From positions 227 through 64,226 of the forward strand of contig PXOU01000007.1 in the NCBI GenBank assembly GCA_003022365.1: a stretch of DNA of 64,000 nucleotides, in the 5' to 3' direction. A program made the position numbers and the translations under genes. The stretch is from Candidatus Saccharibacteria bacterium QS_5_54_17. GTDB lineage: Bacteria; Patescibacteriota; Saccharimonadia; QS-5-54-17. Shown one piece after another: positions 3,585 through 50,235 of this stretch; position 1 is the first letter of the stretch; every line of letters begins with the position of its first letter. The notes beneath the pieces are model-generated. The model was not told the origin of the DNA. It made no database searches and worked only from the letters and a program-made list of their open reading frames with translations.

Positions 3585-4140
3585 TATCATTCCTGAATAT
3601 GTCATTCCTGAAACAAGTTCAGGACAGGCTCTGAATTTATTTCAGGATCTGGTTTCCGGGTTGGTTTCAGCATAAAAATGATTCCGGATCGGAGTCCGGA
3701 ATGACAGAGAGGGTGACGAAAAAGCAATGTCATCCTGAATTTAGTTCAGGATCTATTTCAAAGCTGATTCCGAAACAAGTTCGGAATGACAGAGGGGGGG
3801 GCGGAATGAACTACCACGCCCTTACGGACGTGGTTTCACTTTAATTCAAGCTCCGCTTGGCCGCTGTCTTCCCGGCCCTGGTATTCGATGTAGTTCCGTA
3901 TGGTCTCTTCATCCACGCCGACGGTGGAGATAGCGTACAATCATGCCTCCATGCTACCGCATGGAGGCAAAGACAGCGGCGGCGCCTTCATCCACGCCCT
4001 TACGGACGTGGTTTTCTTATGGCGGATAAAGAGGATTCGCATTTTTTTCCTTACTTCCTGTTCCCTGTCTCCAGTCTCCAGTCTACTGTCTACCACTTAC
4101 TGCTTACTTCTTGCTGCTTGCTTCCTGCTTCCTTTTCCTG
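3585..4140. repeat. Composite hairpin-repeat block R1. It contains the modules gtcattcctgaaacaagttcaggacaggctctgaa, atttcaggatctg, ggattccggatcggagtccggaatgaca and two copies of ccacgcccttacggacgtgg, ending in a CT-rich cttacttcttgctgcttgcttcc module.
   Basis: The same modules recur at 11 or more other intergenic loci in this window. ORFs 3857-4141 and 3900-4154 lie inside the repeat and are probably spurious. Confidence 0.8.
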
Positions 4141-4197
4141 ACCGGCCATTATGACATGAGCTTTATACCCCGCATCTGATCCGCTATACTGGCGGGC

Positions 4198-5148
4198 ATG
4201 GCTACCTATAAAGTTCCCCAGGATGTCGAAGCCGAAGACAAATTACTGGGGCCGCTGACGTTCAAACAGTTCATTTTCATGCTGATCGCCGGCGGCGGGG
4301 GGCTGCTGGCTTGGCTGATGTGGCAGGTGCACCCGTTCCTGGTGGTGTTACCGCTGCCGATCGTGGTGATATTCGGCGGACTGGCCGTCTTCCGCCGGGA
4401 AGACCAGCCCATGGAGCGGTACTTACTGTCCTTTTTTAACTTTCTGTTGCGGCCGCGCCAACGGGTGTGGAACACCGAAGGGTATTACGAACATCTGGTC
4501 CTCACCAAACCCAAAAAACAGGAGGAAACACCCCTCAAACAGGATGTCCACGAAGTCCATGGCCAATTGGAAAAACTGGCCCAGACGGTCGACACGCGGG
4601 GATGGGCCGCCAAACGTCCGGAGCTGACGGTACCGGACGCCAACCCGGCTATCGGCGCCAGCGGCGACGACCGGTTGTTCAGGCCCGACGAGTCCCAGGA
4701 GCCGGCCGAGGTGCACGAGCGCGAAGACATCATGAGCGAGGAAAACCCCGAAGGCATGCAGCTTGACAATCTGCTACACGAACAAACCCGCCAGCGGCGC
4801 GAGCAAGTGATGGAGAACGTCCGCCGGCAAGCACGTGGTCAAACCCCGGCGGAGGGAGAAACCGTGCCCCAGGCGGACGGGCATCATACCCCGGCTGAGG
4901 TTCCTGCCGCCAGCCCGGCCGCGGAAGCTTCGGAATCCCCGCCATCACCACCGGCTGGGCAGACGGGCAACGACCAGGCGACCGACAACACCGACAATCA
5001 GGCGCCCCAGACCCAGGCACCCGAAACCGCCCAGCAATCTGGTATACTGAACGTGTCTGATGAGTTAAGCGTCAGCCAGATCGCCGCCGCGGCCAACCGG
5101 CAATCCGATGATCGCTTGCAAGAGGGTGAGGAGATACAACTGCGATGA
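4198..5148 (+). CDS. VirB3/PrgI-like small T4SS membrane protein with a long disordered C-terminal extension.
   Basis: The N-terminus LLGPLTFKQFIFMLIAGGGGLLAWL plus a second TM helix matches PrgI/TcpE/VirB3-family topology. It sits immediately upstream of the VirB4-like genes. The C-terminus is P/A/Q/E-rich low complexity. Confidence 0.5.
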   Translation: MATYKVPQDVEAEDKLLGPLTFKQFIFMLIAGGGGLLAWLMWQVHPFLVVLPLPIVVIFGGLAVFRREDQPMERYLLSFFNFLLRPRQRVWNTEGYYEHLVLTKPKKQEETPLKQDVHEVHGQLEKLAQTVDTRGWAAKRPELTVPDANPAIGASGDDRLFRPDESQEPAEVHEREDIMSEENPEGMQLDNLLHEQTRQRREQVMENVRRQARGQTPAEGETVPQADGHHTPAEVPAASPAAEASESPPSPPAGQTGNDQATDNTDNQAPQTQAPETAQQSGILNVSDELSVSQIAAAANRQSDDRLQEGEEIQLR

Positions 5149-5274
5149 CTAATCAGCGACACGATAGCCGCGAGCAACCAGGCCCGTTCCAAAATTCCAC
5201 CACGGCTCAGATGTCTTTATGCTTCCGTGTTACCTGCCGCGTCCGGCTGGTTCCATGGCAATCGGGGAGGTTTT

Positions 5275-6285
5275 ATGCCGCCCGATGATCAACAACCCGC
5301 CAACCAGGCAGGCCAGCAGTATGTGCCCGGGAACACCGGCGGGCAGGCCTCAGAACAGACCAACACCGCCGGGCAACCGGATCCAAGCCAAGCTGGACAA
5401 AGCCCCGGGCAAGGACAGCAGCAAGGTCAGCAACAACCCCAGCAACAACCAAACGCCCAAGCAACTCAGCAACAACCCCGGCCCCAACCCAACACCCAGC
5501 GGCCCACCCCAGGCAGCCAGCCCAATGCGGGGCAATCAAAAAAATCGAAAGAGAATAAGAAATCGAGGAAAAAGGCTAACAGCACCCAGAAATCACTGCT
5601 GGTTTCCGAGATACGCGATGGCATCGTTATCATGCGGGACAGTTCGCTGCGTTCGGTGGTCATGTGCCAGTCGGTCAACTTCGATCTGATGAGCCCACAA
5701 GAGCGGGAAGGGGTGGAACAGGCCTACCAACAGTTCCTGAATTCGCTTGATTTTACCGTCCAGATATACATCCGCAGCCAGCGCATCAACCTGGATAACT
5801 ACTTGGAAAAACTCCAAAACGCCCGGCAGAACCAGGACAACATTCTGCTGGGGCTTTTGATGGAGGATTACATCGAATACATCAAGTATCTGGTGGAAGC
5901 AGCTAACATCATGGACAAGCAATTCTACGTCATCGTGCCATATTATCCGTCCGGAATTTCCGAGGGTATCGCCAGCGGTGCCCAGAAATTCACCGAACTG
6001 TTCAAGACCAAGAAGAAAGACGTGGTAACCGTCAACGAAAACGAGTTCAATAAACATAAACAGGAGCTGAGCCGGCGGGCCCGTACGGTCGCCAACGGGT
6101 TGAACCGGATCGGCACCCAGGCCGTACCGCTCAACACCCAGGAACTCATCGAGTTGTATTACAATGTGTACAATCCGGTCACCTCCAAACAGGAGAAGCT
6201 GACCGACGTCAATCAACTAGAGTCCCCGATCATCGAAAAAGGCGAGGGGCAAGCCGACCAGGTACTCCCCGGGGAGAACGCATGA
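5275..6285 (+). CDS. Standalone VirB4 N-terminal-domain-like protein (CagE/TrbE/VirB-like fold) with a ~110-aa Q/P-rich disordered N-terminus.
   Basis: The likely start is ATG 5275, 5 nt after GGGGAGG, in the same frame as listed ORF 5227. The C-terminal 220 aa (IRDGIVIMRDSSLRSVVMCQSVNFDLMSPQEREGVEQAYQQFLNSLDFTVQIYIRSQ...) resemble the N-terminal domain of VirB4 proteins. There is no Walker motif. Confidence 0.45.
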   Translation: MPPDDQQPANQAGQQYVPGNTGGQASEQTNTAGQPDPSQAGQSPGQGQQQGQQQPQQQPNAQATQQQPRPQPNTQRPTPGSQPNAGQSKKSKENKKSRKKANSTQKSLLVSEIRDGIVIMRDSSLRSVVMCQSVNFDLMSPQEREGVEQAYQQFLNSLDFTVQIYIRSQRINLDNYLEKLQNARQNQDNILLGLLMEDYIEYIKYLVEAANIMDKQFYVIVPYYPSGISEGIASGAQKFTELFKTKKKDVVTVNENEFNKHKQELSRRARTVANGLNRIGTQAVPLNTQELIELYYNVYNPVTSKQEKLTDVNQLESPIIEKGEGQADQVLPGENA

Positions 6286-8356: not shown

Positions 8357-8725
8357 TCAGCAGACAGTAGACGGTAGACGGCAGACAGGGAGTGAGAAGC
8401 AACAGGCTCTGAAGATGTCATTCCTGAAACAGGTTCAGGACAGGCTCCGAACTTGTTTCAGGATCTATTGCAGAATCTGTTTCAGGATCATGTCTGGTTA
8501 AAGGATTTCGGCTCGGGGGCCGGAATGACAAATAGGTTTTGCATTCTCCCCTTACTTCTTGCTTCTTGCTGCTTGCTTCTTCTTCCCTGTTCCCTGTCTA
8601 CTTCTGTTTTTTGCTTACTTCTTACTTCCTGCTGCTTACTCTCCGTTCCCTGTATGCTGTCTGCTGTCTACCGCCTACTGTTACCTGCTTGCTTCCTATT
8701 CCCGCTGCCGGGAGACTGTTGTGAG
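8357..8725. repeat. Composite repeat block R2 with a MITE-like layout. The left arm is cagcagacagtagacggtagacggcagacagggagtgagaagcaacagg. Internal hairpin modules follow. The right arm is a long CT-rich microsatellite-like module (cttgcttcttgctgcttgcttc...ctgtctgctgtctaccgcctactg) that is roughly the inverted complement of the left arm.
   Basis: Direct reading of the sequence. ORFs 8453-8755 and 8539-8724 inside it are low-complexity and probably spurious. Confidence 0.8.
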
Positions 8726-8815
8726 TGTATAGGCCGCCCTTTCGTGATATGCTAGGGTAAAGGTAAGGATAACAGGTATGATCCCCCCGTCCTGGATGTG
8801 GCAGGAGTATATAAG

Positions 8816-10018
8816 ATGAAACAGATGGTTAAAGTCAAAAAACATCTCCAAAAACATTTCCGCCCGGGCTCCGGCACCGGTAAGTATCGATCGGCTGGGG
8901 TAATGCTGGGAACGGGCGTGTTGGTATTCGCCTCGGTGGTGACACTGCCCGGAGGTGGCCTGACGGCGGCCACCCAGAAGGAGCCCTCCCGAATCGCACT
9001 GGGGTCCTCACACATCGACGCCGAAACCGACATTACCCAGAACAAGAGCGGCAACGGATGTTTTGCCACCACCGCCATCACCATCCGTAACAGCGGAAAA
9101 TTAGCCGATGCCCTGGAGCGCTACGTCGAAAATCACCAACCCGACTCGCCGTTTGCCAACCTGGGAGAGGCTTTGGTCAGCGGAGCCAAGCAGGAGAACG
9201 TCAACCCCATGCTGTTGGTGGGCATCGCCCAAAAAGAAAGCATGCTGGGGACGGCCTGGGGGAGCAATTCGTCCGACAGCTATAACGCCTTCGGGCGCCG
9301 AGCCAAAGAATCCCAGCCCAGTATAGACGGATGGTACCGGTACGACTCCTGGGAGCAAAGTTTGGAGGGAGGAACCGACTTTGATGACATCCCCAATTAC
9401 CTCCGCCGGGTATTCATCGAAAACGGGGCAGTGTCAATCGAGGAATTCGTCAACCAGTACGCCCCTCCCGAGCAGAACGATACCCAGCTTTACCGTCATC
9501 AACTCCGGCAATCGATCGAGGAAATGATCGAACTGGCCGGCGACAGCATCCGCTGCGGCAGCGGCCAAAACTGGATCTGGCCAACCGGGGACGGGGGAGC
9601 CGTGCTCAGCTGCTTTGGTGAACGGGGCGCCCCGCAACCGATCGGCCCCAACAAGCATGCCGGGATCGACATTACCCCGGACGCCGACCCTTACGTATTA
9701 GCCGCCAATAGCGGCGAGGTGATCACCGCCCGCCACACCGGAGCAGCCGGGCTGATCGTCGAAATACAGCACAATGAAAACCTGATCACCCGGTATCATC
9801 ACAACAGCAGCTTGCTGGTGAACGTCGGGGAGACCGTATCGGCCGGGCAACGGATCGCCTACGTGGGCACCAGCGGCAACGCCACCCACCCGCATGTGCA
9901 TTTTGAGATCTCCCGCAACCAGAAAGCAGTCAATCCCGCCCGGGAAATGGATATACCCGGGGCAGTTTCCACCAGCGGCGCTAATTGCGGCGGCAACCAA
10001 GAAAAGGGGTCGTCATGA
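8816..10018 (+). CDS. Secreted or membrane-anchored bifunctional peptidoglycan hydrolase: an N-terminal lysozyme-like (glucosaminidase/SLT-like) domain plus a C-terminal M23 (LytM) endopeptidase. It is a VirB1/PrgK-like accessory.
   Basis: ATG 8816 follows AGGAG by 9 nt. A TM/signal region is present. The motif NPMLLVGIAQKESMLG (E in a lysozyme-like context) is shared with ORFs 32299-35304 and 53628-54344. The M23 motifs are HAGIDI...HHNSS...GNATHPHVHFE. Confidence 0.75.
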   Translation: MKQMVKVKKHLQKHFRPGSGTGKYRSAGVMLGTGVLVFASVVTLPGGGLTAATQKEPSRIALGSSHIDAETDITQNKSGNGCFATTAITIRNSGKLADALERYVENHQPDSPFANLGEALVSGAKQENVNPMLLVGIAQKESMLGTAWGSNSSDSYNAFGRRAKESQPSIDGWYRYDSWEQSLEGGTDFDDIPNYLRRVFIENGAVSIEEFVNQYAPPEQNDTQLYRHQLRQSIEEMIELAGDSIRCGSGQNWIWPTGDGGAVLSCFGERGAPQPIGPNKHAGIDITPDADPYVLAANSGEVITARHTGAAGLIVEIQHNENLITRYHHNSSLLVNVGETVSAGQRIAYVGTSGNATHPHVHFEISRNQKAVNPAREMDIPGAVSTSGANCGGNQEKGSS

Positions 10019-10959
10019 AGAACCGGATATTGGTCGGGGCGATTGCGGGAGGCTTGATACTGGCAACGGCCCTCGTCGTCGCGGTCCAGCTGAATTCCGG
10101 GTCGGAACCCTTTTTCCAGAAAGCCGCCCATGATCACGTCAAACACATGCGGTTCGTGGAACCCAATGTGCTCCAGTACGTCACCCGGGACAACGAGGTT
10201 AAGCGACTCGGAGCGGAAACCTTCCGGACCGAAACCCAAACCCAGGTGAAAGGGTTTCACGTCCGGCTCAGCCCCTCAGGCGAATACGTCAGCCACGCCA
10301 AGGACGGCAAAATACACATCACTACGGTATCCTCGGAGCGGACCAACCACCGGTTGCACGGTTCGCTGCATCGCTGGCAGGACGAGTCATCGCTTATGTA
10401 TATCAAAAACCAATCAAAGCCCTCCGTGTTCCTGGAAGAAGGACAGCTTACCCGGTACCATCTTGAGACTACCAACAAGGACTATGTCATGGACATAGCG
10501 GGCACCGTTATCCATCCGTTGAATTCGTATTCGGGACTGATACTCACCGCGGCCGGCCAGGAGGTAGCCGAGAACGCCCGTTTAACGCTCTACAGTGGCC
10601 GGAAAGAGGCGGAGGTGGCGGTCTCCGATCAACCCATCCAAAGCACGGCCAGCGCTCATGGACTGATGGCTTTCCAGACCCGCGGCGATCCCACCCTGAA
10701 ACTCATCAACCGGCACGGCCGGGTAAAACCGACCGCCATCCAACCGCGGGAAAGTTTGTACCGACCCGTGGATGGGGATACCATCGCCGCCGAGATAACC
10801 AGCGCCGATCAACGGAAAATCGAACTATACGACGTCTCCCAATCGGTGGTGGAAAGACAGCTGCCTCTGGGTGAAGTAGGCGAAGTCATCGACGTGGCGG
10901 CCACGGACAGCTACGTCGCCGTCGCCACCACCAACGGGATATACGTAGGAGCCTTATAG
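10015..10959 (+). CDS. N-terminally TM-anchored extracytoplasmic protein of unknown function (possible T4SS structural component).
   Basis: ATG 10015 follows AAAAGGGG. It has a single N-terminal TM helix, sits in the operon with the hydrolase genes, and its start overlaps the stop of the upstream gene. Confidence 0.5.
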   Translation: MKNRILVGAIAGGLILATALVVAVQLNSGSEPFFQKAAHDHVKHMRFVEPNVLQYVTRDNEVKRLGAETFRTETQTQVKGFHVRLSPSGEYVSHAKDGKIHITTVSSERTNHRLHGSLHRWQDESSLMYIKNQSKPSVFLEEGQLTRYHLETTNKDYVMDIAGTVIHPLNSYSGLILTAAGQEVAENARLTLYSGRKEAEVAVSDQPIQSTASAHGLMAFQTRGDPTLKLINRHGRVKPTAIQPRESLYRPVDGDTIAAEITSADQRKIELYDVSQSVVERQLPLGEVGEVIDVAATDSYVAVATTNGIYVGAL

Positions 10960-10960
10960 T

Positions 10961-11578
10961 ATGATGCGATCCAAAAAACTACTCATCATCGCCGCTGTTA
11001 TCATCTTTCTACTGGCTGCCGTCGCGGCGGTGTATTGGCTGGAATTCCGGAACCAGGAATTCCAGCTGGAGGATACTTCCCCCGGCCAGCAAGTCCGGAT
11101 AGACCGGCTGACTCCCACCATTTCTTTTGACTATAATCAACCCCTCTTTATCCCCGAGGATTTCCGGGTGGTGAGCGATCCGCTCATGGACGCGGAAATA
11201 TACACCCGCGGCGACACGCTGTATCTGGTACCCAACCACGCGCTCCTCCAGCGAGCGGAATACACCCTGACCATACCCCGGATCGAAAGCCAATCCGGCC
11301 AAAGCATAGGTGAACACACCCTTACCTTCCGCACGGACCGGCGACAGTCGTCCCGGCTTGGGTTTATCCGTGACCTGCCGGTGCATAATCCCGGCTACAG
11401 CATCACCTATCTGGAAGATCAGGATGCGTTCGTGGTCCGCATTACCCAAGTGCCGGTAGAAGAAAAGCGGCTACGGGCGCGTAACTATCTGGAGAAGAAC
11501 GGCATTAAACCCGGGCAAAACGACGTTAAATTCGAAATATTGCGCAGCGTGGAAGGGCGGGGCGCTTCAGCGGGATAA
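10961..11578 (+). CDS. Bitopic membrane protein (205 aa) with VirB8-like topology: short cytoplasmic N-terminus, one TM helix, about 170-aa periplasmic domain.
   Basis: Topology only. It is translationally coupled (ATG 2 nt after the upstream stop). There is no sequence-level family match I can assert. Confidence 0.4.
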   Translation: MMRSKKLLIIAAVIIFLLAAVAAVYWLEFRNQEFQLEDTSPGQQVRIDRLTPTISFDYNQPLFIPEDFRVVSDPLMDAEIYTRGDTLYLVPNHALLQRAEYTLTIPRIESQSGQSIGEHTLTFRTDRRQSSRLGFIRDLPVHNPGYSITYLEDQDAFVVRITQVPVEEKRLRARNYLEKNGIKPGQNDVKFEILRSVEGRGASAG

Positions 11579-11584
11579 TCGGCC

Positions 11585-11845
11585 GATGGGGGCAGTTGAC
11601 AGGAAGCAAGGAGCAAGTGGCAAGTGGAAAATGCAAATCCTCTTTGTCATTCCGAACTTGTTTCGGAATCGGCTCTGAAACAGATCCTGAAATAAATTCA
11701 GGATGACAATGGGGGAAGATCCTGAAACAAGCCTGCCTGCCGGCAGGCAGGTTCAGGATGACATTTTCACTACCCCTCTCTGTCATTCCGGCCCCCGAGC
11801 CGGAATCTATTAAACCGAGGTGTTCAATAAGTTCTGTCAAACTAA
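11585..11845. repeat. Composite repeat block R3: purine-rich arm gacaggaagcaaggagcaagtggcaagtgg; hairpin modules including gtcatcctgaacctgcctgccggcaggcaggttcaggatgaca and tgtcattccggcccccgagccggaat; ending with the ggtgttcaataagttctgtca module.
   Basis: Direct sequence comparison with R1, R2, R4-R12. ORF 11526-11840 is probably spurious. Confidence 0.8.
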
Positions 11846-11905
11846 GCCAGTGATTTATAAAAGGCCGTGGTTATTGTATAATCCAGGGGAAATCAAAAGG
11901 CGGGT

Positions 11906-14900
11906 ATGGCGGAAGCCCAGGATACAGACGACCAGGACCAAAACCAGGATTCGGCCGGCCAGGGCGATGTCGAACAAGACACCCGGGAAGGCGGGGAGCA
12001 AGCCAATCAAGACGGCGGAGCGAGCGAATCCACCGGTGAGGGCGGAGCAGGCGAATCCAGCGGCGGAAGCGGCGGTTTTTACTCGGCTGGCGGCGGCGTA
12101 GCCGAATCCGCCCTGAATAAGACCGCCGTCGGGCGCGGGCTGAAGCCCGTGCTCAAGCTCATCGGCCGTAACAAAGGCAAGAGCGGCATTGCCGGCGGCA
12201 TCGTGGGGGTAATTATAACCATGGTAGTGGTCGGTTTTCTGGGTTTGAAACAGTTCGAGCTGGTGCACATGATGAAAATTTTTCACAACTACGCTTTCGT
12301 GGCGTCCGAATATACCGAAGGCGGCCGGACTTCCCGGCTTCTTGCCCGCACCTTCCAACGCGGCCGTAATATGGAAACGAAAAGAGTTCGCCAGGACGGC
12401 AACCGGCGGAGGACCGGCAACCTGATCAGCGACTGGGTTAATGACAGCCGTTTGAATAAAATCGAGTCAAAAATTGAGAAGAAGGGATATACATTTGAAT
12501 ACAAGAGCGCAAACGGCCACCGGGTGGCTACGGGGATACGCCAAATAGATACCGGGGAGGTGATCGAACTGAAGAACTTCCGCCAAGCACGAGGAGAGAT
12601 CCGCACGCTCATCAAACAAGGGATCAAACCTTGGCGGGTGGGGAAGCGATTCCGGTTTCATCAGTTGATGTATTACCGCACCGGGTGGAATCGGAAATTC
12701 TTTACCGGACGCAAGCGGGCCGATGCCTCCCGGCGGTTGCGCGCCCGGGTACGCGGGGAGAAGTATAACCCGGAGGCGCGCCCCAGAGACAGTGACAGCG
12801 ACAGCAAGGTTTCCGAGGAAACCAGACAACAGGTGGAAGGTGAAGTAGAGGAACAACAGAACAAAGTCAACAATATCATCGAGGACGCTCGCCGGGGACG
12901 CTCGCCAAACCTGAAAGCTCGGGCTTCCGAGATCGGTTTAAGCGTCACCGGTTTGGCAATGATGAAGTGTCTCGCCGAGAGTATTGAAAAGCAAACCGAG
13001 GGCCAAGAGCGGGCCCGCCAGGAAGCACCCATGGTCCTGGCCCAGGAAGTATCCACCGCCGCTCATCAAGCCAAAGTCGGGGGGAATACGGTGAGCGGCG
13101 AAGAATACGGGCAGCTGATGGAAGTTTTTCACGATCCAGCAACAGAGGGTACGGAAGGGAAAAACATAGTTGCAGCTGCTGGCGGCACCGGTACTCCAGC
13201 AACAGAGGATACGGAAGGGAGACACCCAGGCGAAACTGCCGCCTATAAACGAGCGGCCGGTGTACAGCTTACCGGCAACGAACCGGATCTCGAGGACAAT
13301 TATTATGTCAAGGCGGGAGGGATAGGCGGTTTTTTTCGTAACGTCGCAAAAGAGGGGTTAGAACGCATTAATGCAGTAGGCAAATTAGGAAACAATATAT
13401 GTAGCTTTTTGGGTAATACGGGAGTCCAACTGACCGCGGACTCCATAGAGCTTATCGCCTCCTTGGGTGTGGGGAAAGCGGTTGCCATCGGGGGCGAGTG
13501 GGCGCTGGAGCAATTAAGAGCTTTTCAGTGGGCTGTGGGCAATTTTGTGGATTGGATAGTCGACAACATCAGCTGCATGGATTTCGGCTTCTCGGCGCAT
13601 CTGGCCACCAACTGCCTGGCCGCCGGCATGGTGATGAACAACACCGAACATGTCCGAAGCAACATGGGCGCGCCGCCGCTTTCGGGTGATAAATACGAGA
13701 AAGTCCGGGATAAAGCCCAGGACGCCCAACACGACTTTCTGGCCCGGAAGGGTTCGTTCCATAAGTACCTGTCTCCCGACAACCCCTACTCCCTTACCTC
13801 CAAGGTGGCCGTGGCCATGCCCAAAACCTTTCACGGGCTGGCTCGCCAAACGGCCAACATTCCTTCCGCCCTTCTGGATTCGCTGGGAAGCATCTTTTTC
13901 CAGTCCGTCGGCGCCCAGTGGAAGGAAGGGGACGATTATAAAACCTACGGGTTGGAACACTTCGGGTTCACCGACGCAGAAGTGCAGAACGTCGACCCCG
14001 TTGCCAACGAAAAGCACGTTCTGGATCATCTGAACTATTACTGCTGGAAAAATTCCAACGGCAATGAGTGGCAAGTCTACGATGGGAAGGGTTATAGGGG
14101 TTGCGACAAAAGCAAGTTCACCACAGCTGTCAATATGCGGGAGTATCTGTGGTGCTCGCAACTCCCTTACAACGAACCCAGCAGCGGGGGCACAAAGGGT
14201 TGGAGCGACACCCATTGCCCGGATCGTTTCGTCCGAGACAGCTCGCAAAGTTGGTTATCCACAAACAATTTGATCGCCATTTCCATGTGGATGTTTGACC
14301 GGTATACCGTGGAAAACATGTCTCAACTGGTCTCGGATAACAAATTAGACGACACCATAACCTTTAACCTTCTTGAGGATATCGAAAGCTGCGCTCAACA
14401 AATAAAGGAAGATCCGGGTACTCCGGCCACGATGGGCTCGTTTGTTGCTAGAAAGGAAAATCCGCCCATCCCTTTGAGTTGTTATGAGAAAACGGACGAA
14501 CGGCCCTCAATTTTTTACTCCAAAGGCTATATGCAGGGTGAAGGTGGCAGTGCCTCGGCAGATGACGGCGGCTCGGGGAGTGATGGCGGCGACAACAACA
14601 CTGGCGGCGGCGGGAGCGGCGAGTCCCAACCCGTAGAGGGGGAGACGGAAGAACTGGCCAAGCGCATTCTGAATCGTCCCGATATTACTTTTAAGGGCGG
14701 CGAGGGCGGCAGAGTACGGAATTCCTTCGTGCAAGCCAGCCGCAGCGGCACCGCATCCAAGTACACCCGGGATGGTCGCCGGACGGAGGTAAGTTCCCAG
14801 TTGCTGGGGGTCATCCTGCGCATAGCCAACCAGTCTAACATACCCCGCATCCGGATCACCTCGCTTACCACCGGCGATCATACCTCCGGTAGTACGCACT

Positions 14901-15112
14901 ATAGCGGGCAGGGAGTAGATATCGGCAATCAGTTTGCCGATACTCTTATCCGGTTCGTTTACCGGAACCGCGGCAACTTCGGCATCCACGAGATTATATA
15001 CGCCTCGCCGCCACAGGGCACCAGTAATCTTAAGTCCGGGGAGTCCTTTTCCTACTCGCCGAAGACCAGGGAAAATCATAGTGATCACATACATATTTCC
15101 ACACTGCAATGA
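11906..15112 (+). CDS. Large (1068 aa) membrane-anchored protein with an acidic disordered N-terminus, one TM helix and a C-terminal LAS/M15-type zinc peptidase fold (VanY or L-Ala-D-Glu peptidase-like).
   Basis: The C-terminus RITSLTTGDHTSGSTHYSGQGVDIGN...HSDHIHIS fits the Peptidase_M15 S-x-H-x-x-G-x-A/G-x-D and HxH zinc motifs. A TM helix IAGGIVGVIITMVVVGFLGL is present. The gene is translationally coupled to the downstream gene. Confidence 0.65.
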   Translation: MAEAQDTDDQDQNQDSAGQGDVEQDTREGGEQANQDGGASESTGEGGAGESSGGSGGFYSAGGGVAESALNKTAVGRGLKPVLKLIGRNKGKSGIAGGIVGVIITMVVVGFLGLKQFELVHMMKIFHNYAFVASEYTEGGRTSRLLARTFQRGRNMETKRVRQDGNRRRTGNLISDWVNDSRLNKIESKIEKKGYTFEYKSANGHRVATGIRQIDTGEVIELKNFRQARGEIRTLIKQGIKPWRVGKRFRFHQLMYYRTGWNRKFFTGRKRADASRRLRARVRGEKYNPEARPRDSDSDSKVSEETRQQVEGEVEEQQNKVNNIIEDARRGRSPNLKARASEIGLSVTGLAMMKCLAESIEKQTEGQERARQEAPMVLAQEVSTAAHQAKVGGNTVSGEEYGQLMEVFHDPATEGTEGKNIVAAAGGTGTPATEDTEGRHPGETAAYKRAAGVQLTGNEPDLEDNYYVKAGGIGGFFRNVAKEGLERINAVGKLGNNICSFLGNTGVQLTADSIELIASLGVGKAVAIGGEWALEQLRAFQWAVGNFVDWIVDNISCMDFGFSAHLATNCLAAGMVMNNTEHVRSNMGAPPLSGDKYEKVRDKAQDAQHDFLARKGSFHKYLSPDNPYSLTSKVAVAMPKTFHGLARQTANIPSALLDSLGSIFFQSVGAQWKEGDDYKTYGLEHFGFTDAEVQNVDPVANEKHVLDHLNYYCWKNSNGNEWQVYDGKGYRGCDKSKFTTAVNMREYLWCSQLPYNEPSSGGTKGWSDTHCPDRFVRDSSQSWLSTNNLIAISMWMFDRYTVENMSQLVSDNKLDDTITFNLLEDIESCAQQIKEDPGTPATMGSFVARKENPPIPLSCYEKTDERPSIFYSKGYMQGEGGSASADDGGSGSDGGDNNTGGGGSGESQPVEGETEELAKRILNRPDITFKGGEGGRVRNSFVQASRSGTASKYTRDGRRTEVSSQLLGVILRIANQSNIPRIRITSLTTGDHTSGSTHYSGQGVDIGNQFADTLIRFVYRNRGNFGIHEIIYASPPQGTSNLKSGESFSYSPKTRENHSDHIHISTLQ

Positions 15113-16413
15113 AGTACACGCGACTCGCATTATTTAGTATGATTTTGGTTTTTACGCTGGCCTCCATAATTTCCGGAGTAGGAGCCTTGCCGGCGGAAGA
15201 CGAAAAAGCATACATTTACGACAGCGTTTATTACGATGGCGATGCCACCACCGACCGATGCAGCCAGGGCGGAGCGGAAAGTATAGAGGAGTTACCTTCT
15301 AAAATTCGGCAACCGTACCGGGATCTTTTCCCGGAAGCAGCATCTGAGCAAAATGCCGATTTGGCCTTGTTGACGTTCGTCTTCTTCTGGGAAAACCGCG
15401 ATTTCCCGCCGCCGGACTACGACTGGCCTACTTCCGATTTAGAAGGTGACGACGACCCACAGGGACCGTTCCAATTCCGACCTAGTACATGGGACGCCTA
15501 CGGGGTTGACGGCGACGGAGATGGCGACAAAGACCTACAGGACGTAACCGACGCGGCCTACGGAGCGGCTAATTTTCTGAACTCGCTGGGCGGTAGCCAG
15601 GGGAGCCCGGTGGGCAGCGCCGCCAACCCCTTTGAAGAGGGAACGTTGGCATACGCTATGGGGGCCTACAACCACGGCCCGGCCGCCATGGAAAGAAAGA
15701 AGGATCTCCCCGAAGACGAGCGTGAGCTCCCCAAGGAAACCCGGGATTATATCAAGCGCGGCGTAACTTTTATCCGGGATTTGCGGTCCGGTACGGTCAA
15801 TCTGTCTACTGACGTGGAAGCTGGAGGAGGTGAAACGGCGCAGGCAAACGTAAGCCTTTCTTCGAACGGATGCGGCGGTTTAGGGGTGGGAAGTGATCTG
15901 GTATTCCCCTTGAAAACCACCAAGGCTGCCATACGGGAAGGGACTACCTTGAACGGCACGACCCTGACTTGGTGCCATGACAACCAAACCAACTGCCACA
16001 GCCCTCCCGGCTCCGATGACTTATACAAAGCCGCCGATGTCTTCGTGGAACCCGGCACCGAAGTAGTCGCCGCCACCAGCGGGACCGTGATTAAAACCGA
16101 TCCGCCGGGGCCATCCTTGAGCGTCCGGATACACGGCGAAGATGGTAACTATTATCATTACCAACACCTGAAACCCCACTCTGAGCGCGTCAACGAGAAC
16201 GACCGCGTGGAAGCGGGTGACGTGATAGGGGTTATCGGCGGGCCGAAAGCCGCGTTTGGCACCGCACCGCATCTTCACTTTGATGTCGCCACCGAAAACG
16301 TCGGCATTAGCCGTGACTGTGTGTCAAGCGGGAACTGTGAATATGAAAAATCGGTCATGATTGACGCCCAGCCCGATTTAGTAGGAGCATATAAAGCGTT
16401 ACCACAGGATTAG
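15109..16413 (+). CDS. Secreted bifunctional peptidoglycan hydrolase: MltB/Slt-family lytic transglycosylase domain plus M23 (LytM) endopeptidase domain.
   Basis: It has a signal peptide. The MltB-like motif is GPFQFRPSTWDAYGVDGDGDGDKDLQDVTDAAYGAANFL. The M23 motifs are HDNQTNCHSPPGSDD...HYQHL...GTAPHLHFDV. The start overlaps the upstream stop (ATGA). Confidence 0.8.
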   Translation: MKYTRLALFSMILVFTLASIISGVGALPAEDEKAYIYDSVYYDGDATTDRCSQGGAESIEELPSKIRQPYRDLFPEAASEQNADLALLTFVFFWENRDFPPPDYDWPTSDLEGDDDPQGPFQFRPSTWDAYGVDGDGDGDKDLQDVTDAAYGAANFLNSLGGSQGSPVGSAANPFEEGTLAYAMGAYNHGPAAMERKKDLPEDERELPKETRDYIKRGVTFIRDLRSGTVNLSTDVEAGGGETAQANVSLSSNGCGGLGVGSDLVFPLKTTKAAIREGTTLNGTTLTWCHDNQTNCHSPPGSDDLYKAADVFVEPGTEVVAATSGTVIKTDPPGPSLSVRIHGEDGNYYHYQHLKPHSERVNENDRVEAGDVIGVIGGPKAAFGTAPHLHFDVATENVGISRDCVSSGNCEYEKSVMIDAQPDLVGAYKALPQD

Positions 16414-16416
16414 CCT

Positions 16417-17640
16417 ATGCGGATAAGTTTTACACAAATCACCATAATAGTTGTCGGGGCGCTGATAGTCATCGGGGCCATATGGCTGGTGGTTTCCTAC
16501 TTCACCACCGGAGTCCTGCGGGTGGAAACCGGGCAAAACGCCCGGGTTGAACGGTTCGAGATCGCCGAAAACAGCCAACAAGCCCGAAAGCTTGGCACGG
16601 GGCCGGTGGTTAGCCAACGATTGGATCCGGGAACCTACACCGTAACGGCCGAAAACGCGGAGGGGGAAACGCGGACCGATACTACGGTGCAAAAACGGCA
16701 GACCACCGAGGTTCAGCTCAAGGTAGAAGAAGCAGGCAAGTTCCAAGAACTCACCCGTGGCAACGCCTATAACATAATCTCCCAGGCCGGCCGCCTGCGT
16801 TTTCTCGACCAAAACTTGAAACGGCTGTATCAGTTGGAAGCAGCCGGGCAGCGGCCCGAAAACGTCTTTCCCGGTTTATCCCCGGTATCGAGTATTACCT
16901 GGGCGGGTTATGACAGCGCGTTTGTCCAGCTGGAGAATAACGCCTATAAAGCGCTGGCCAGTGGCAACGTCAAACCGTTTCGATATCCACCGGATGCCCG
17001 CCCTAGTACCGATAACATCCCCAGCCTCGCCTCCCATGACATCAACGACCGCGGCCAAATGGCGGTTAATATCGAGGGTAGTTTGTATCGGTACCCGTCA
17101 GTGGATGCTGAGCCTGACAAATTACGCGATTTACCCAGCCAGAGCAGCCAAATCGCCCTCTCGGACACCGGAAGCATTTTTATATTCCACCCACCGGTAA
17201 CGGGCGAAAACAGTCAGTCCCAGCCCAGCAACCTGATTGTGGGAAGCCAAGCGTCTATGCCGGATGCGATGAAAAATACACACGTGTTGAATGCCGAGTG
17301 GAGTCCATCCGGTAACAAGTTACTCCTGGCCAAGAAAAACGGGCTCCACGTCTACGACAAAGCCGAGCAACAATTAAGCCGGGTTATGCAGTTTCTCCCC
17401 GATAATGCGGACAGTCTCCTGTGGCGGGATGAAAACCGGTTGCTTATGGTCGACGACGGTGCCGTCTGGCAGCTGCACATAGGTGAGCAGAAATGGCGGA
17501 AAATGGCGGACACGCCGGACCCGGTCCGGCACAACAACCCGCTCACCCTTGGCCAGGATGGACGGACCTTATATATGGGTACCACTTCGCAGGGACTGGA
17601 AAATGCCGGGTCTTTGTACCAACTTCGCCTGCCGCAATAG
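16417..17640 (+). CDS. TM-anchored extracytoplasmic protein with a PEGA/CarboxypepD_reg-like beta-sandwich followed by a probable beta-propeller (TolB-like) region.
   Basis: N-terminal TM helix. PGTYTVTAENAEGETRTDTTV is a typical PEGA-like strand pattern, and WSPSGNKLLLAKKNGLHVYD is a propeller-blade-like segment. 57735-59414 looks like a paralogue. Confidence 0.5.
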   Translation: MRISFTQITIIVVGALIVIGAIWLVVSYFTTGVLRVETGQNARVERFEIAENSQQARKLGTGPVVSQRLDPGTYTVTAENAEGETRTDTTVQKRQTTEVQLKVEEAGKFQELTRGNAYNIISQAGRLRFLDQNLKRLYQLEAAGQRPENVFPGLSPVSSITWAGYDSAFVQLENNAYKALASGNVKPFRYPPDARPSTDNIPSLASHDINDRGQMAVNIEGSLYRYPSVDAEPDKLRDLPSQSSQIALSDTGSIFIFHPPVTGENSQSQPSNLIVGSQASMPDAMKNTHVLNAEWSPSGNKLLLAKKNGLHVYDKAEQQLSRVMQFLPDNADSLLWRDENRLLMVDDGAVWQLHIGEQKWRKMADTPDPVRHNNPLTLGQDGRTLYMGTTSQGLENAGSLYQLRLPQ

Positions 17641-17644
17641 CGGC

Positions 17645-18075
17645 CGTATAGTCTCCCGGCAACGGGAATAAGGGAAGTAGATGGTAGACAGCAGACAGAA
17701 AACAGAGAGTGAGAAGCAACAGGCTCTGAACCTGTCATCCTGAACTTGTTTCAGGATCTATTTCAAAACCATCTCGGTTTAATGGATTCCGGATCGGAGT
17801 CCGGAATGACAAAGCGGGTAGCCTGGTAATAACGAATCTTCTATTGTCATCCTGAATTTATTTCAGGATCTGTTTCAGGCTTAGTTTCATAATCATATCG
17901 ACTTAATGGATTCCGACTCGGGGGCCGGAATGACACAGAGGTTTTGCATTTTTTCACTTGCTTCTTGCTTCTTACTGCTTGCTTCTTGTTCCCCTCATCC
18001 GCCTCGTCTCCCGGCTTATTGAACACCCTCACAGTAAACAGCAAGGAGGTGTTCAATAAGTTTCTGTCACATTAA
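17645..18075. repeat. Composite repeat block R4, the clearest MITE-like copy. The left arm is purine-rich (gggaagtagatggtagacagcagacagaaaacagagagtgagaagcaacagg). Two tandem sets of hairpin modules follow. The right arm is a pyrimidine-rich module (cacttgcttcttgcttcttactgcttgcttcttgttcc). It ends with the hairpin cttattgaacacc-N20-ggtgttcaataag.
   Basis: Direct reading of the sequence. The internal modules are duplicated within the element (17705-17815 versus 17840-17945). Confidence 0.8.
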
Positions 18076-18355: not shown

Positions 18356-19390
18356 TTACAACTCAATGGTAGCACAACCGGTTTCTAGTTGCTGTGGCGG
18401 ATGGGTAGCCGTGATGATGGTTTGGGTGTCGTGTAGGTGTTCCAGCAAGGCCGCTTGGCGCCGCTCATCCAATTCACTGAACACGTCATCCAAAAGCAAC
18501 AGCGGCTCGGACCGGGCATACTCGCGGATATAGGAGAGCTCCCCCAGCATGAGCGCCACCGTGGCCGTCCGCACTTCGCCCCGGGATCCGACTTCGGCCA
18601 GCGGCCGGGAATTATGCGTTACGTTTATGTCGTCCCGATGCGGACCATGGCCGGTGGTGCCATATCTAAAATCGGGTTGAATGGAGGCGGCCAGCTGCCG
18701 TAATAACTCATCGGGATAGTTTTTATTGCTGGTTTTGGAGGCGTAGGTGAATTGGATCTGGTTTTGGTCACCGGTGATATCCCGGTATATAGCCGGCACG
18801 GATTGATTGAAAAACGCCACTAAATCTTCCCGGCATCGGCGGATGTAGGCGGCTTGCTCCACCAGTAATACGTCCCACCCAAAGACCTGGTCTTTACTCG
18901 CCTCTCCCCGGCGTAAAAGACTATTCCGCTGTTTTAATATCCGCCGGAACCGTAAGAGGGAGGTGAGGTATTGGCTGTCGCTAAAGCAGAGAATCCGGTC
19001 CATAAGGTGCCGGCGATAGGATGGGGAGCCGTATATCAACTGTAAGCCGCCCGGTTCGAATAAAACGACCGGTAAATAGCCGATAAAATCCCGGGGCTTG
19101 ACTTGCTCACCCTGGCAGTATAACTGTTTCTGCTTCTGCTTCCAGGTGACCGCCAATTCATTCTTATCCGACGTCCAGGCGCTGACACGGAACCATTGCT
19201 CCCCGTCGCGGGCCATACTGGCCGGCGAACCGCGAAAACTCCGACTCATTCCCAACAGGTAGATAGCTTCCAGTATGTTGGTTTTGCCGCTCCCGTTGGG
19301 ACCGGTGATAACCGTCTTGCCGGCATCAAAACTAAACGCACGGTCTGGGTAGGAACGGAAATTGGTTAGTTGAAGCGTAGAAAGCGGCAT
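18356..19390 (-). CDS. recF: DNA replication and repair protein RecF.
   Basis: Walker A GPNGSGKTNILEAIY at the N-terminus. The Walker B/D-loop region LLLDDVFSELD at the C-terminus. Synteny with dnaN. Confidence 0.9.
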   Translation of the reverse strand: MPLSTLQLTNFRSYPDRAFSFDAGKTVITGPNGSGKTNILEAIYLLGMSRSFRGSPASMARDGEQWFRVSAWTSDKNELAVTWKQKQKQLYCQGEQVKPRDFIGYLPVVLFEPGGLQLIYGSPSYRRHLMDRILCFSDSQYLTSLLRFRRILKQRNSLLRRGEASKDQVFGWDVLLVEQAAYIRRCREDLVAFFNQSVPAIYRDITGDQNQIQFTYASKTSNKNYPDELLRQLAASIQPDFRYGTTGHGPHRDDINVTHNSRPLAEVGSRGEVRTATVALMLGELSYIREYARSEPLLLLDDVFSELDERRQAALLEHLHDTQTIITATHPPQQLETGCATIEL

Positions 19391-19589: not shown

Positions 19590-20675
19590 TTAGGAGCGGA
19601 GCGGCATGACGATGTGTAAGTAGGAATCATCGTCCACCGGCTGGATCAGGCACGGATTGACTTTGCCGGTTAAACTGATGTCAACTTGGTCGGTATCGAT
19701 CACGCTCAAGGCGTCGGCGATATATTTACCGTTGAGGGCTACTTCCATATCTTCACCGGAAACCTCGCCGGAAATCTCCGAGCTGTTTTCACCGACTTGG
19801 CTGGCGACCGATTCCATATACAGACTGTCACGGGCTATTTTGACTGTCACGCTTCCGGTGGTTTCCCGTGCGAACAAGGTGGCCGCTTTGGTAATATCCT
19901 GGAGCTCGCCGGTGTTCACCCGGGCGGTGGTGGGAACCTCCTGGGGTATAAGTTGCCGGTAATCAGGGAATTCGCCGTCGATGATCCGGGAAACCAACTC
20001 CGTTTCATTGAACCCGAAGCTGATTTGATTGTCATCGATTTTCACTGTGACATCTTCACCCTCACCTAAAAGCCGCAACACTTCCGACACGGTGCGGGCG
20101 GGCACCACCACGTTACACTCAGCATCGGTCTCCATGATTTGCTTTTCCGCCAACCGGTAGCTGTCGGTGGCCACCGCGTACAGCATGCCGTCTCTGGTAT
20201 GCAGATAGACACCCGTTAAAACCGGCCGGCTATCATCCCCGGAAGTGACATGCACCACCTGGCTTAAGGCGTTTTTAAGCGTTTTGGCTGCCACTTGAAA
20301 TTCTACGTTACCCGAAACGGAGGGAATCGAAGGAAACTCTTCGGCGCTGATACCGTTGATTTTAGAGGAAAACCCGTTACTGTCTATGTGCACCGTGTCT
20401 TTCTCGCAAGTCAAGGAAACGTTTCCGGCCGGAAGATTGTGCACGTATTCGGAAAACAACTTGGCCGGAATAGTAACAGCTCCATCTTCTTCTACTTTAC
20501 CGCCGATCCAGTGAGTTATGCCCATTTCAAGATTAGTAGCTGAGAGCTGGATCCGGTTGTCTTTGGTTTGGAGTAATACATTAGCCAATACCGGCAAGGT
20601 ATTCCGATTGCCGATGATGCGGGAAACGGTGCTAAGTCCGTGGTTAAGATTTTCCTGGGTGATACTGAGCTTCAT
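19590..20675 (-). CDS. dnaN: DNA polymerase III beta sliding clamp DnaN.
   Basis: The N-terminus MKLSITQENLNHGLSTVSRIIGNRNTLPVLANVLL is typical of DnaN. It is about 360 aa in three domains, in synteny between dnaA and recF. Confidence 0.9.
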   Translation of the reverse strand: MKLSITQENLNHGLSTVSRIIGNRNTLPVLANVLLQTKDNRIQLSATNLEMGITHWIGGKVEEDGAVTIPAKLFSEYVHNLPAGNVSLTCEKDTVHIDSNGFSSKINGISAEEFPSIPSVSGNVEFQVAAKTLKNALSQVVHVTSGDDSRPVLTGVYLHTRDGMLYAVATDSYRLAEKQIMETDAECNVVVPARTVSEVLRLLGEGEDVTVKIDDNQISFGFNETELVSRIIDGEFPDYRQLIPQEVPTTARVNTGELQDITKAATLFARETTGSVTVKIARDSLYMESVASQVGENSSEISGEVSGEDMEVALNGKYIADALSVIDTDQVDISLTGKVNPCLIQPVDDDSYLHIVMPLRS

Positions 20676-49974: not shown

Positions 49975-50235
49975 TTATTCCTGCCTACCCTCTTTGTCAT
50001 TCCGAACCCTCTCCGTCACTCCTAACCCCATCCGTCATTCCGAATTTATTTCGGAATCCGGTCCTGAAATAGATCCTGAAATAAATTCAGGATGACAAAG
50101 AGAAAATTCATTATTACGAGGCTACCCTCTCTGTCATTCCGGCCACCGAGCCGGGATCCATTAACCCGATATGATTCTGAAACGGATCCTGAAACAAGTT
50201 CAGGATGACATCCGGAGCCGGGTCCGGGATAACAA
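49975..50235. repeat. Composite repeat block R9.
   Basis: It contains tgtcattccgaa..., cggtcctgaaatagatcctgaaataaattcaggatgaca, tgtcattccggccaccgagccgggat and gatcctgaaacaagttcaggatgaca. Confidence 0.8.

Follow-up and report, generated by a model that had tools for sequence, protein, structure and literature searches.

Predicted peptidoglycan hydrolases in the type IV secretion gene cluster of a halophilic Saccharibacterium: a probable wall-remodelling module

Introduction

Saccharibacteria are ultrasmall bacteria that live on other bacteria. In a 64,000-nucleotide (nt) stretch of the genome of Candidatus Saccharibacteria bacterium QS_5_54_17, a member of a halophilic lineage, three genes for predicted cell wall hydrolases lie within a gene cluster for a type IV secretion system (T4SS). 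Here, the whole stretch analyzed is called the window, and the gene products are called hydrolases 1, 2, and 3 in gene order (Table 1). Hydrolase 2 is a membrane protein of 1068 amino acids (aa) that ends in a LAS-type peptidase domain; the gene is BRC19_00675 of QS_5_54_17 (100% identity), and hydrolase 3 is BRC19_00680. What do these enzymes do for the secretion system, and on whose wall do they act? The Saccharibacterial T4SS is essential for epibiotic growth, and its function is given in reviews as 'completely unknown' (PMC11665869). The hydrolases are the T4SS components easiest to test biochemically, and their preference for the cell's own wall or the host's wall bears on the role of the machine.

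We consider it probable that the hydrolases form the peptidoglycan-remodelling module of the T4SS, that is, a functional equivalent of VirB1, PrgK, and TraG spread over several proteins. The reading is favored because hydrolase 2 has all six residues essential in the peptidase VldE, the synteny is conserved, the genes of hydrolases 2 and 3 are coupled through an ATGA overlap, and a corresponding pair is essential in the cultivated relative ML1. The evidence is of several kinds: gene order, the identities of the domains and their fold, catalytic residues kept or lacking, signals for export, and synteny. The domain, fold, and structure matches are far beyond chance. As an initial annotation made from the letters of the window had it, the three open reading frames (ORFs) lie inside the T4SS cluster and their products carry predicted hydrolase domains; all three are on the + strand and have an N-terminal transmembrane or signal sequence, so that they are predicted to be exported or membrane-anchored.

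The LAS domain of hydrolase 2

No family in Pfam, NCBIfam, or PHROGs matches the 1068-aa protein. A HMMER search with its last 170 residues gathered 148 cluster representatives, from which a 40-sequence alignment was made. In this alignment H84, S88, H90, G93, D97, H150, H153, and H155 (domain numbering) are near-invariant. Compared with the PDB, the profile of the 40 sequences matched the C-terminal domain of VldE (E 5e-4) and Sonic hedgehog N-domains (E 1e-4), and both matches fall right on the zinc motif. A single-sequence PDB search with the C-terminal 210 aa reached VldE at E ~1. It is the 40-sequence profile and the AlphaFold2 (AF2) model, not the single-sequence search, that make the VldE match convincing.

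The AF2 model of the C-terminal domain, built on the same alignment, has a predicted local distance difference test (pLDDT) score of 96.1 and a predicted template modelling (pTM) score of 0.91. With this model, Foldseek placed VldE first in the PDB (E 9e-5, probability 1.0), followed by Hedgehog N-domains (probability 0.99) and then by the Streptomyces zinc DD-peptidase 1lbu and MepA. The C-terminus of the 1068-aa protein is thus modelled as a LAS (Hedgehog/DD-peptidase) fold of the VldE/MT3 type. The initial annotation had proposed an M15/LAS fold from the motif HSDHIH, and both the motif and the fold have held up.

VldE (Spr1875 of Streptococcus pneumoniae; PDB 9flh-9fln) is a zinc L,D-endopeptidase that cuts the L-Ala-D-iGlu bond in the acceptor strand of cross-linked stems, and the MT3 motif, its LAS domain, takes its name from the tape-measure protein of mycobacteriophage TM4 (PMC11667670). 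Alanine substitution at H301, D308, H375, H370, D372, or H373 abolishes VldE activity (PMC11667670). In a pairwise HMMER alignment these residues correspond, in the same order, to H998, D1005, H1063, H1058, D1060, and H1061 of hydrolase 2. The first zinc motif, H-x6-D, is present as S996-T-H998-YSGQGV-D1005 and aligns with 'SLHYEGRAVDI' of Sonic hedgehog and 'HGKGLAIDF' of VldE; among the 40 members the His is invariant and the Asp is at least 90% conserved. The loop E-N-H1058-S-D1060-H1061-I-H1063 aligns residue by residue with E368-N-H370-Y-D372-H373-V-H375 of VldE. That is, the E-N-H-x-D-H-x-H loop and the S-x-H-x2-G-x-[AG]-x-D motif are common to both proteins.

The two domains also differ. 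They are about 22% identical, the window domain has about 50 extra N-terminal residues, and the TM-score is 0.65 when scaled to the target length and 0.45 when scaled to the query length. VldE, a LysM protein of 380 aa, serves septal remodelling of its producer, whereas the window domain forms the C-terminus of a 1068-aa membrane protein encoded within a T4SS cluster. Weak Pfam matches are scattered within the family of 40 (HH_signal in 9, M15_4 in 6, and M15_3 in 4). A relative in one of the related loci, L005, has a precomputed match to PF26571 VldE; the window protein has none in the local Pfam copy.

From its homology to VldE, the LAS domain would be an L,D-endopeptidase that cuts L-Ala-D-iGlu in cross-linked stems. 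Proteins that carry the domain away from a T4SS are 300-830 aa long, and 5 of 10 that were sampled had any Pfam match; in those five, LAS is combined with LysM and with Glucosaminidase or Phage_lysozyme2. A peptidoglycan substrate is therefore favored.

The remainder of the protein is less readily placed. In the full-length AF2 model the mean pLDDT is 62, with the C-terminal domain above 90, and a Foldseek search with this model found VldE at the C-terminus only and nothing credible for residues 115-835.

Hydrolase 3, the companion enzyme

The next gene encodes a protein described in the initial annotation as an MltB-like transglycosylase joined to an M23 peptidase, and both domains score above their Pfam cut-offs. 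SLT_2 (PF13406) reaches 39.3 bits against a cut-off of 24.3, with residues 119-179 matching model positions 157-218 of 292. PDB matches to MltB, Slt35, and SltB (E 6e-4 to 5e-3) cover the same stretch. The candidate catalytic residue is Glu95, in 'FFWENRD'. It lies outside the stretch matched by the hidden Markov model (HMM), its column is Glu in most relatives that have SLT_2 and M23, and in the family alignment this column falls on the Glu-Thr/Ser of ordinary SLT proteins, e.g., actinobacterial 'GMEETAH'. The M23 domain (PF01551) reaches 55.7 bits against 28.7.

The genes of hydrolases 2 and 3 share the ATGA at 15109-15112, in which the start of the second overlaps the stop of the first. This junction suggests that the two are translationally coupled.

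Conservation of the core pair

Is the pair peculiar to the window? A search of GTDB genomes with the full 1068-aa protein found nothing. Related loci were assembled as four independent metagenomic loci (L001 and L003-L005) and, through a degenerate DNA pattern for the zinc motif, as loci in GTDB genomes. A genuine LAS domain is present in 26 of 26 motif-matched genomic loci, which are nearly all Patescibacterial (Saccharibacteria, Parcubacteria, Sungbacteria, Yanofskybacteria, Doudnabacteria, and Paceibacterota).

In the related loci the order of genes is VirB6 - PrgI - TraC-like - VirB4 - large LAS protein - wall hydrolase - ~400-aa partner - DciA - RecF - DnaN - DnaA. The VirB4 proteins of the independent metagenomic loci match the window VirB4 at E 1e-275 or better. 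The large LAS protein varies in length from 886 to 1115 aa. Its gene directly follows virB4 in L001, L003, L005, and L023; in L004, where the protein is 83% identical to that of the window, it follows the same three-gene insert as in the window. The slot after the large LAS protein is filled by SLT_2 plus M23 in the window, L001, L003, and L004, by Phage_lysozyme2 plus M23 in L005 and L014, by Phage_lysozyme2 alone in L023, and by LAS plus SLT_2 in L028. This slot appears to be modular in its domains and, by prediction, always wall-lytic. As judged from these sequences, the core pair, i.e., a large LAS protein and a two-domain wall enzyme, is conserved across the Saccharibacterial class.

Two side observations concern the distribution of the domain. 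In L028 (1355-6042, a Saccharimonadales genome), what follows the large LAS protein is a protein with a second LAS domain in addition to SLT_2; the VldE-type peptidase is duplicated there in adjacent genes. Two LAS loci, L011 and L025, are assigned by their records to Fibrobacterota and Deltaproteobacteria rather than to Patescibacteria, the former record being a single-cell genome and the latter a metagenome bin, and these labels may reflect mis-binning, contamination, or horizontal transfer.

The arrangement is already on record for the cultivated strain ML1 (Southlakia epibionticum). SEML1_0008 is VirB4; SEML1_0007 is a protein of 1113 aa in which residues 951-1105 are annotated 'Hedgehog/DD-peptidase', with 'Peptidase M15B domain-containing protein' as top structural neighbour; and SEML1_0006 is a protein of 643 aa with Lysozyme-like (PF01832), Lysozyme-like (PF18013), and Cysteine proteinases domains (Wang et al. 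2023, PMC10633639 Tables S1/S2). The three genes adjoin recF, SEML1_0007 and SEML1_0006 stand directly after virB4, and all three are essential by transposon sequencing (PMC10633639). Likened by position and annotated domains, the two organisms of the class Saccharibacteria agree as follows. The T4SS cluster lies beside dnaA-dnaN-recF, and virB4 is followed by a protein of about 1100 aa with a C-terminal Hedgehog/DD-peptidase (~155 residues), then a multi-domain hydrolase, then small exported proteins. They differ in that the second enzyme of ML1 is Glucosaminidase + Phage_lysozyme2 + cysteine protease, that of the window is SLT_2 + variant M23, and in ML1 no additional glucosaminidase-like/M23 gene parts virB4 from the gene of the large protein.

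It has been proposed that the 'peptidase and lysozyme homologues' of ML1 may fill the role of VirB1, and Patescibacterial VirB1 homologues often have M23 or LysM domains (Quinonero-Coronel et al., PMC12102498). Thus, the notion that the window holds an arrangement unusual for a T4SS does not apply to this lineage, where a LAS protein and a glycosidase-peptidase after virB4 are conserved and, in ML1, annotated. Two of the three hydrolases belong to the core already catalogued, and essential, in ML1. The arrangement is real but largely known, and the window taken alone is ordinary, a further instance of what is recorded for the class that differs in the domains of the second enzyme and in an extra lysin.

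Several points add to what had been annotated before. The peptidase at the C-terminus is, more exactly, of the VldE/MT3 type, which yields a concrete candidate bond, L-Ala-D-iGlu in cross-linked stems. The LAS protein and the slot that follows it are conserved, and the domains in the slot vary by lineage. The M23 domains linked to the T4SS make up a distinct subfamily with Tyr in place of His, and one halophilic lineage has an extra enzyme that resembles phage lysins. These last two are considered next, the lysin first.

Hydrolase 1, a putative accessory enzyme

Hydrolase 1 probably starts at ATG 8816, a codon with AGGAG ahead of it and a better choice than GTG 8798, and its N-terminus is a hydrophobic signal-anchor. 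Its M23 domain is canonical (PF01551, 95.1 bits against a cut-off of 28.7), and the site is complete, with H281-AGI-D285, YHH 327-329 (H328/H329), and H358-P-H-V-H362 with H360-V-H362 (400-aa numbering). These residues align with ShyA, EnvC-type, and LytM structures.

The N-terminal domain, called lysozyme-like in the initial annotation, is glucosaminidase-like (GH73-like). The Pfam match to PF01832 covers 117 of 123 model positions and scores 23.4 bits (E 1e-4), under the cut-off of 30.2, and the glycosidase call is weak because the match is sub-threshold. An NCBIfam peptidoglycan-hydrolase model matches residues 103-191 (E 2e-5), and by eye the stretch 'AQKE141SMLG...NAFG' resembles the catalytic-Glu context of GH73, 'E-S...G...N-x-F-G'. 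A single-sequence phmmer search of the PDB with the N-terminal domain gave nothing relevant, a homologue search with this domain alone gave no match, and BLASTP of hydrolase 1 against P0167, a relative with Glucosaminidase and M23, aligned the M23 part alone. Thus, of the Pfam models by which the initial annotation could be checked, M23 and SLT_2 lie above the cut-off and Glucosaminidase lies below it, with no family on the 1068-aa protein.

The closest likenesses of the whole protein are to phage enzymes. Residues 52-377 are collinear with phrog_6700 'endolysin' over both domains (E 4e-27). Residues 97-398 are 27% identical to gp183 of Bacillus phage G, a 'tail protein with lysin activity', and 'lysozyme-peptidase tail proteins' of Clostridium podophages share 39-40% identity with the M23 domain.

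The gene is followed by two others that encode transmembrane proteins of 314 and 205 aa, the first of which has no family match in Pfam, NCBIfam, or PHROG. Together the three form an insert with orthologues in L004 alone among the fetched loci, which suggests that one halophilic lineage gained an extra phage-lysin-like enzyme.

The initial annotation took the three hydrolase genes to be tightly coupled through ATGA. Such overlaps are indeed found, at 10015-10018 between hydrolase 1 and the 314-aa gene, and at the junction of hydrolases 2 and 3 described above. The genes do not form one block, as the two small transmembrane-protein genes and a 327-nt repeat-bearing spacer intervene between hydrolase 1 and the 1068-aa gene. 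A promoter-like site lies within this spacer, at 11854-11882. Co-regulation of all three hydrolases is not established, because the spacer with its promoter-like site parts the hydrolase 1 group from the core pair.

A probable peptidoglycan-remodelling module for the T4SS

How might these proteins work together? The first member of the core pair would be a single-pass protein of about 900-1100 aa whose VldE-type LAS zinc peptidase is held on a long, mostly helical stretch outside the cell and a flexible linker of ~70 residues. The second would be a secreted cutter of glycan strands (SLT_2/MltB-like here) joined to an M23 endopeptidase that may cut cross-links or cross-bridges. Hydrolase 1, with its glucosaminidase-like domain and canonical M23, would add capacity as an accessory enzyme in the window genome and its 83%-identical relative. 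Acting jointly, the enzymes would breach a thick monoderm wall locally, and the T4SS channel or pilus would pass through the gap. The hydrolase activity, the bonds cut, and a physical association with the T4SS are thereby predicted from homology and gene position; the same holds for the complementary bond specificities and the penetration of host walls suggested by the initial annotation.

The comparison of the window proteins with PrgK-type multi-domain enzymes, the VirB1 equivalents of Gram-positive bacteria, is apt. PrgK of pCF10, TraG of pIP501, and CD419/TrsG are likewise membrane-anchored multi-domain hydrolases in monoderm clusters of the VirB4/PrgI/VirB6 type. A glycan cutter is found in them together with a peptidase, and PrgK, as cited in PMC12102498, also has a LytM/M23-like domain. 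The differences lie in the allotment of domains. Those systems have SLT and CHAP on one anchored polypeptide, whereas in the window the peptidases are LAS and M23 and are distributed over three genes, SLT_2 is on a secreted protein together with M23, and the anchored protein carries LAS. No CHAP or NlpC/P60 match was obtained for the window proteins scanned against Pfam. Furthermore, the Saccharibacterial T4SS is chromosomal, and that of ML1 has no recognizable relaxase (PMC10633639).

Several points weigh against this interpretation. The SLT_2 match of hydrolase 3 spans about 1/5 of the model, and the M23 domain of the same protein lacks the canonical first zinc His, so that it could be a non-catalytic LytM-type domain such as those of SpoIIQ, EnvC, and PrgK. 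No fold can be recognized for about 700 residues of the 1068-aa protein, so that its chief role may not be hydrolysis. The glucosaminidase call for hydrolase 1 is sub-threshold, and the PDB and homologue searches gave it no reinforcement. Hydrolase 1 and its two partners are set apart from the core pair by the spacer that holds the promoter-like site. Finally, the enzymatic activity of these proteins is a prediction from sequence and models.

The cell's own wall or the host's wall

A peptidoglycan-remodelling module could serve the cell's own wall, as in PrgK and TraG, or be turned outwards. In the latter case the hydrolases would act mainly on host peptidoglycan at the contact zone, and the T4SS pilus or channel would reach the host membrane for effector delivery or for uptake of nutrients or DNA. 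We regard this as possible, though clearly less likely than remodelling for the T4SS as such. Saccharibacteria live as obligate epibionts and need their T4SS, in the epibiotic setting only, to grow on the host; reviews assign it no function (PMC10633639; PMC11665869). For two modules, the LAS domain (MT3) and hydrolase 1 (tail lysins), the nearest relatives are wall-penetrating enzymes of phage tails, and the long helical stalk with its 70-residue linker could reach past the cell's own wall. An extra lysin acquired by a single lineage would be in keeping with adaptation to the wall of a particular host.

The phage comparison can be taken further. Hydrolase 1 is collinear with tail lysins of the lysozyme + M23 type, such as phi29 gp13, and the LAS domain belongs to the family of the TM4 tape-measure motif 3. 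The hydrolase set may, somewhat speculatively, be an outward-facing wall-drilling device like that of a phage tail, which presents an MT3/VldE endopeptidase beyond the cell's own wall to open host peptidoglycan. The secreted glycosidase-M23 enzymes would assist it at the site of contact, and the T4SS would thereby gain access to the membrane of the host. If so, the shuffling of the second enzyme and the extra lysin would be adaptations to differing wall chemistries of hosts. Phage tail lysins differ from the window genes in that the latter are chromosomal and belong to a secretion cluster; the region examined around them holds no phage structural genes, and the identities are low (27-40%).

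Against a host-directed role, the T4SSs by which Gram-positive bacteria conjugate need multi-domain hydrolases for the donor's own wall (PrgK and TraG, as cited in PMC12102498). VldE, the closest characterized relative of the LAS domain, remodels the septal wall of its own producer.

The variant M23 domain of hydrolase 3

The initial annotation staked its M23 assignments on the zinc ligands. These are complete in hydrolase 1. In hydrolase 3 the first His is replaced by Tyr306, in Y306-KAA-D310. This Tyr lines up with the His in 'MHYGVD' of lysostaphin and with its counterpart in three further M23 proteins of solved structure, so that the refuting condition set by the initial annotation applies in part; D310, H353, H388, and H390, the other ligand and catalytic positions, are retained. 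What is the meaning of this substitution?

One answer is that part of the module is non-catalytic. That is, the variant M23, and possibly the helical part of the 1068-aa protein, would be a scaffold or activator like EnvC/NlpD, SpoIIQ, or the LytM domain of PrgK, and fewer types of bond would be cut than the number of domains implies. The replaced His is consistent with this, as are the NCBIfam matches of hydrolase 3, which include SpoIIQ, and the middle 700 residues of the 1068-aa protein, which have no enzyme-like fold. The SpoIIQ of B. subtilis is likewise not known to have the first zinc His.

The pattern of conservation points the other way. In 18 of 18 T4SS-linked relatives (~25-70% identity), C289, C296, H297, Y306, D310, H353, H388, and H390 are all conserved. 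The Cys289-x6-Cys296-His297 motif does not occur in more distant M23 matches, which mostly have the canonical His. From the alignment, the M23 domains linked to Saccharibacterial T4SSs (window, L001, L003, L004, and L005) form a distinct subfamily with Tyr for His at the metal site. Their conservation suggests a metal site that is maintained in variant form with a substitute ligand rather than one in decay, and it may be a new kind of site in which Tyr306 and/or Cys-x6-Cys-His297 takes the place of the canonical His. A non-catalytic role for part of the module therefore appears doubtful to us, somewhat more so than action on the host wall.

Two further items bear on this domain. Simple degeneration was considered and is less likely, given the strict conservation of the other catalytic residues and of the Cys/His motif. 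The clade of the window also has a six-residue insertion in M23, which produces an H297-x12-D310 spacing. H-x12-D is the spacing in M23A enzymes such as LasA, a likeness that speaks against a scaffold role.

A last alternative makes the enzymes housekeeping autolysins for division or wall turnover: M23 and SLT enzymes commonly serve in cell division, VldE is a septal remodelling enzyme, and the LAS domain is also found in LysM-containing proteins whose fetched flanks lack a virB4 gene, but that such genes should stand between the T4SS genes and the origin by mere chance of position is improbable, as the slot right after virB4, with its overlapping or abutting frames, is kept in the related loci and in ML1 though the second enzyme is shuffled. 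The T4SS review of 2025, which lists a VirB1-like component for the Saccharibacterial locus (PMC12857230), also argues against it.

The T4SS cluster and its surroundings

The features of the window are collected in Table 1. The cluster is the chromosomal T4SS of Gram-positive type (MPF_FATA-like) described for Saccharibacteria and Patescibacteria (PMC10633639; PMC12102498; PMC12857230).

Table 1. Coordinates of the hydrolases, their domains, and the neighbouring genes in the window
Feature	Coordinates (nt)	Strand	Basis or remark
VirB6/TrbL-like polytopic membrane protein, 910 aa	225..2957	+	Weak Pfam TrbL, E 0.0028; T4SS cluster begins here in the window
PrgI-family (VirB3-like) protein	4198..5148	+	Pfam PrgI 55.9 bits, cut-off 27
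TraC-like/VirB4 N-terminal-like protein, own ORF	5227..6285	+	NCBIfam VirB4 families
VirB4 ATPase, 640 aa	6434..8356	+	NCBIfam conju_CD1110 360.2 bits, cut-off 325; Pfam P-loop_TraG 86 bits
Hydrolase 1, 400 aa	8816..10018	+	Pfam M23; glucosaminidase-like (GH73-like) N-terminal domain
Hydrolase 1, glucosaminidase-like domain	~9173-9523
Hydrolase 1, M23 domain	9653-9937
314-aa protein, N-terminal transmembrane helix	10015..10959	+	Insert member; start ATG overlaps hydrolase 1 stop (ATGA)
205-aa protein, N-terminal transmembrane helix	10961..11578	+	Insert member; weak Big_5 (Ig-like), E 0.06
Hydrolase 2, 1068-aa single-pass membrane protein	11906..15112	+	Hydropathy scan, AF2 models, Foldseek, profile search
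Hydrolase 2, residues ~1-90			Acidic, disordered N-terminus
Hydrolase 2, residues ~94-114	12185-12247		Transmembrane helix, the sole one (hydropathy scan)
Hydrolase 2, residues ~115-835			Largely helical, family-conserved, no recognizable fold
Hydrolase 2, residues 836-905			Gly/Ser/Asp-rich disordered linker, ~70 residues
Hydrolase 2, residues 910-1068	14633-15109		VldE-type LAS metallopeptidase domain (predicted)
Hydrolase 3, 434 aa, Sec-type signal peptide	15109..16413	+	Pfam SLT_2, M23
Hydrolase 3, residues ~68-217	15310-15759		SLT_2/MltB-like lytic transglycosylase domain
Hydrolase 3, residues 289-397	15973-16299		M23 domain
407-aa partner, N-terminal transmembrane helix, possible beta-propeller	16417..17640	+	Weak beta-propeller and CarboxypepD_reg matches
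recF	18356..19390	-	Matches recF positions of related loci, E 1e-64 to 1e-214
ORF where relatives have dnaN	19590-20675	-	dnaN inferred from position only
ORF where relatives have dnaA	21018-22391	-	dnaA inferred from position only

At the head of the cluster, the counterparts of the VirB6/TrbL-like gene in L004 and L005 match PF19590 TrbL_3, and the PrgI gene is kept in L001 and L003-L005. The VirB4 protein looks split, with a separate ORF of about 300-360 aa (N-terminal VirB4/TraC-like) preceding the ATPase ORF. In the product of this first ORF, residues 108-306 match the N-terminal part of NCBIfam VirB4 models, and its orthologues in the related loci match PF26593 TraC-like. The split is not a frameshift artefact, because the same split is found in all related loci (L001, L003, L004, and L005). 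In L003, a 136-aa gene (4077-4487) that matches 23S_rRNA_IVP and bAvd lies between the TraC-like gene and virB4. bAvd is an accessory protein of diversity-generating retroelements.

Downstream of the hydrolases, homologues of the 407-aa partner stand in the equivalent position in L001, L003, L004, L023, and L028. Those of about 400 aa, anchored by a transmembrane helix, lie at 11119-12324 in L001, 11015-12214 in L003, and 14654-15772 in L004. In ML1 this position is held by PEGA and prealbumin-like exported proteins (PMC10633639). The partner may be an uncharacterized structural part of the T4SS. Beyond it, Pfam calls DciA, RecF, DnaN, and DnaA in L001 and L003-L005, and the order recF/dnaN/dnaA is identical in ML1 (SEML1_0001-0003; PMC10633639). 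As far as these sequences indicate, the origin-proximal anchor (recF-dnaN-dnaA) of the T4SS cluster is conserved in Saccharibacteria.

The spacers of the cluster have features of their own. The one after virB4 (8357-8815) is unusually long (459 nt) and holds a low-complexity tract that is CT-rich on the + strand, especially at 8530-8700. An ORF of 100 aa at 8453-8755 was rejected as a gene; it lies in this CT-rich, repeat-bearing intergenic tract. The repeat in question, TGTCATTCC, has 16 copies in the window against 0.57 expected by chance, and the copies that were checked in the T4SS cluster lie in intergenic spacers. Copies are found at 3600-3791, 8416-8530, 11645-11789, 17803-17935, 24953, 49995-50140, 53430-53504, 54642, and 59541. 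They often occur in inverted pairs (3600/3698, 8416/8522, and 53430/53496) and are accompanied by CTGAAACA / TTCAGGA motifs. The family looks like a palindromic element of the repetitive extragenic palindromic (REP) or miniature inverted-repeat transposable element (MITE) kind. The three-gene insert with hydrolase 1 has copies in the spacer on either side of it.

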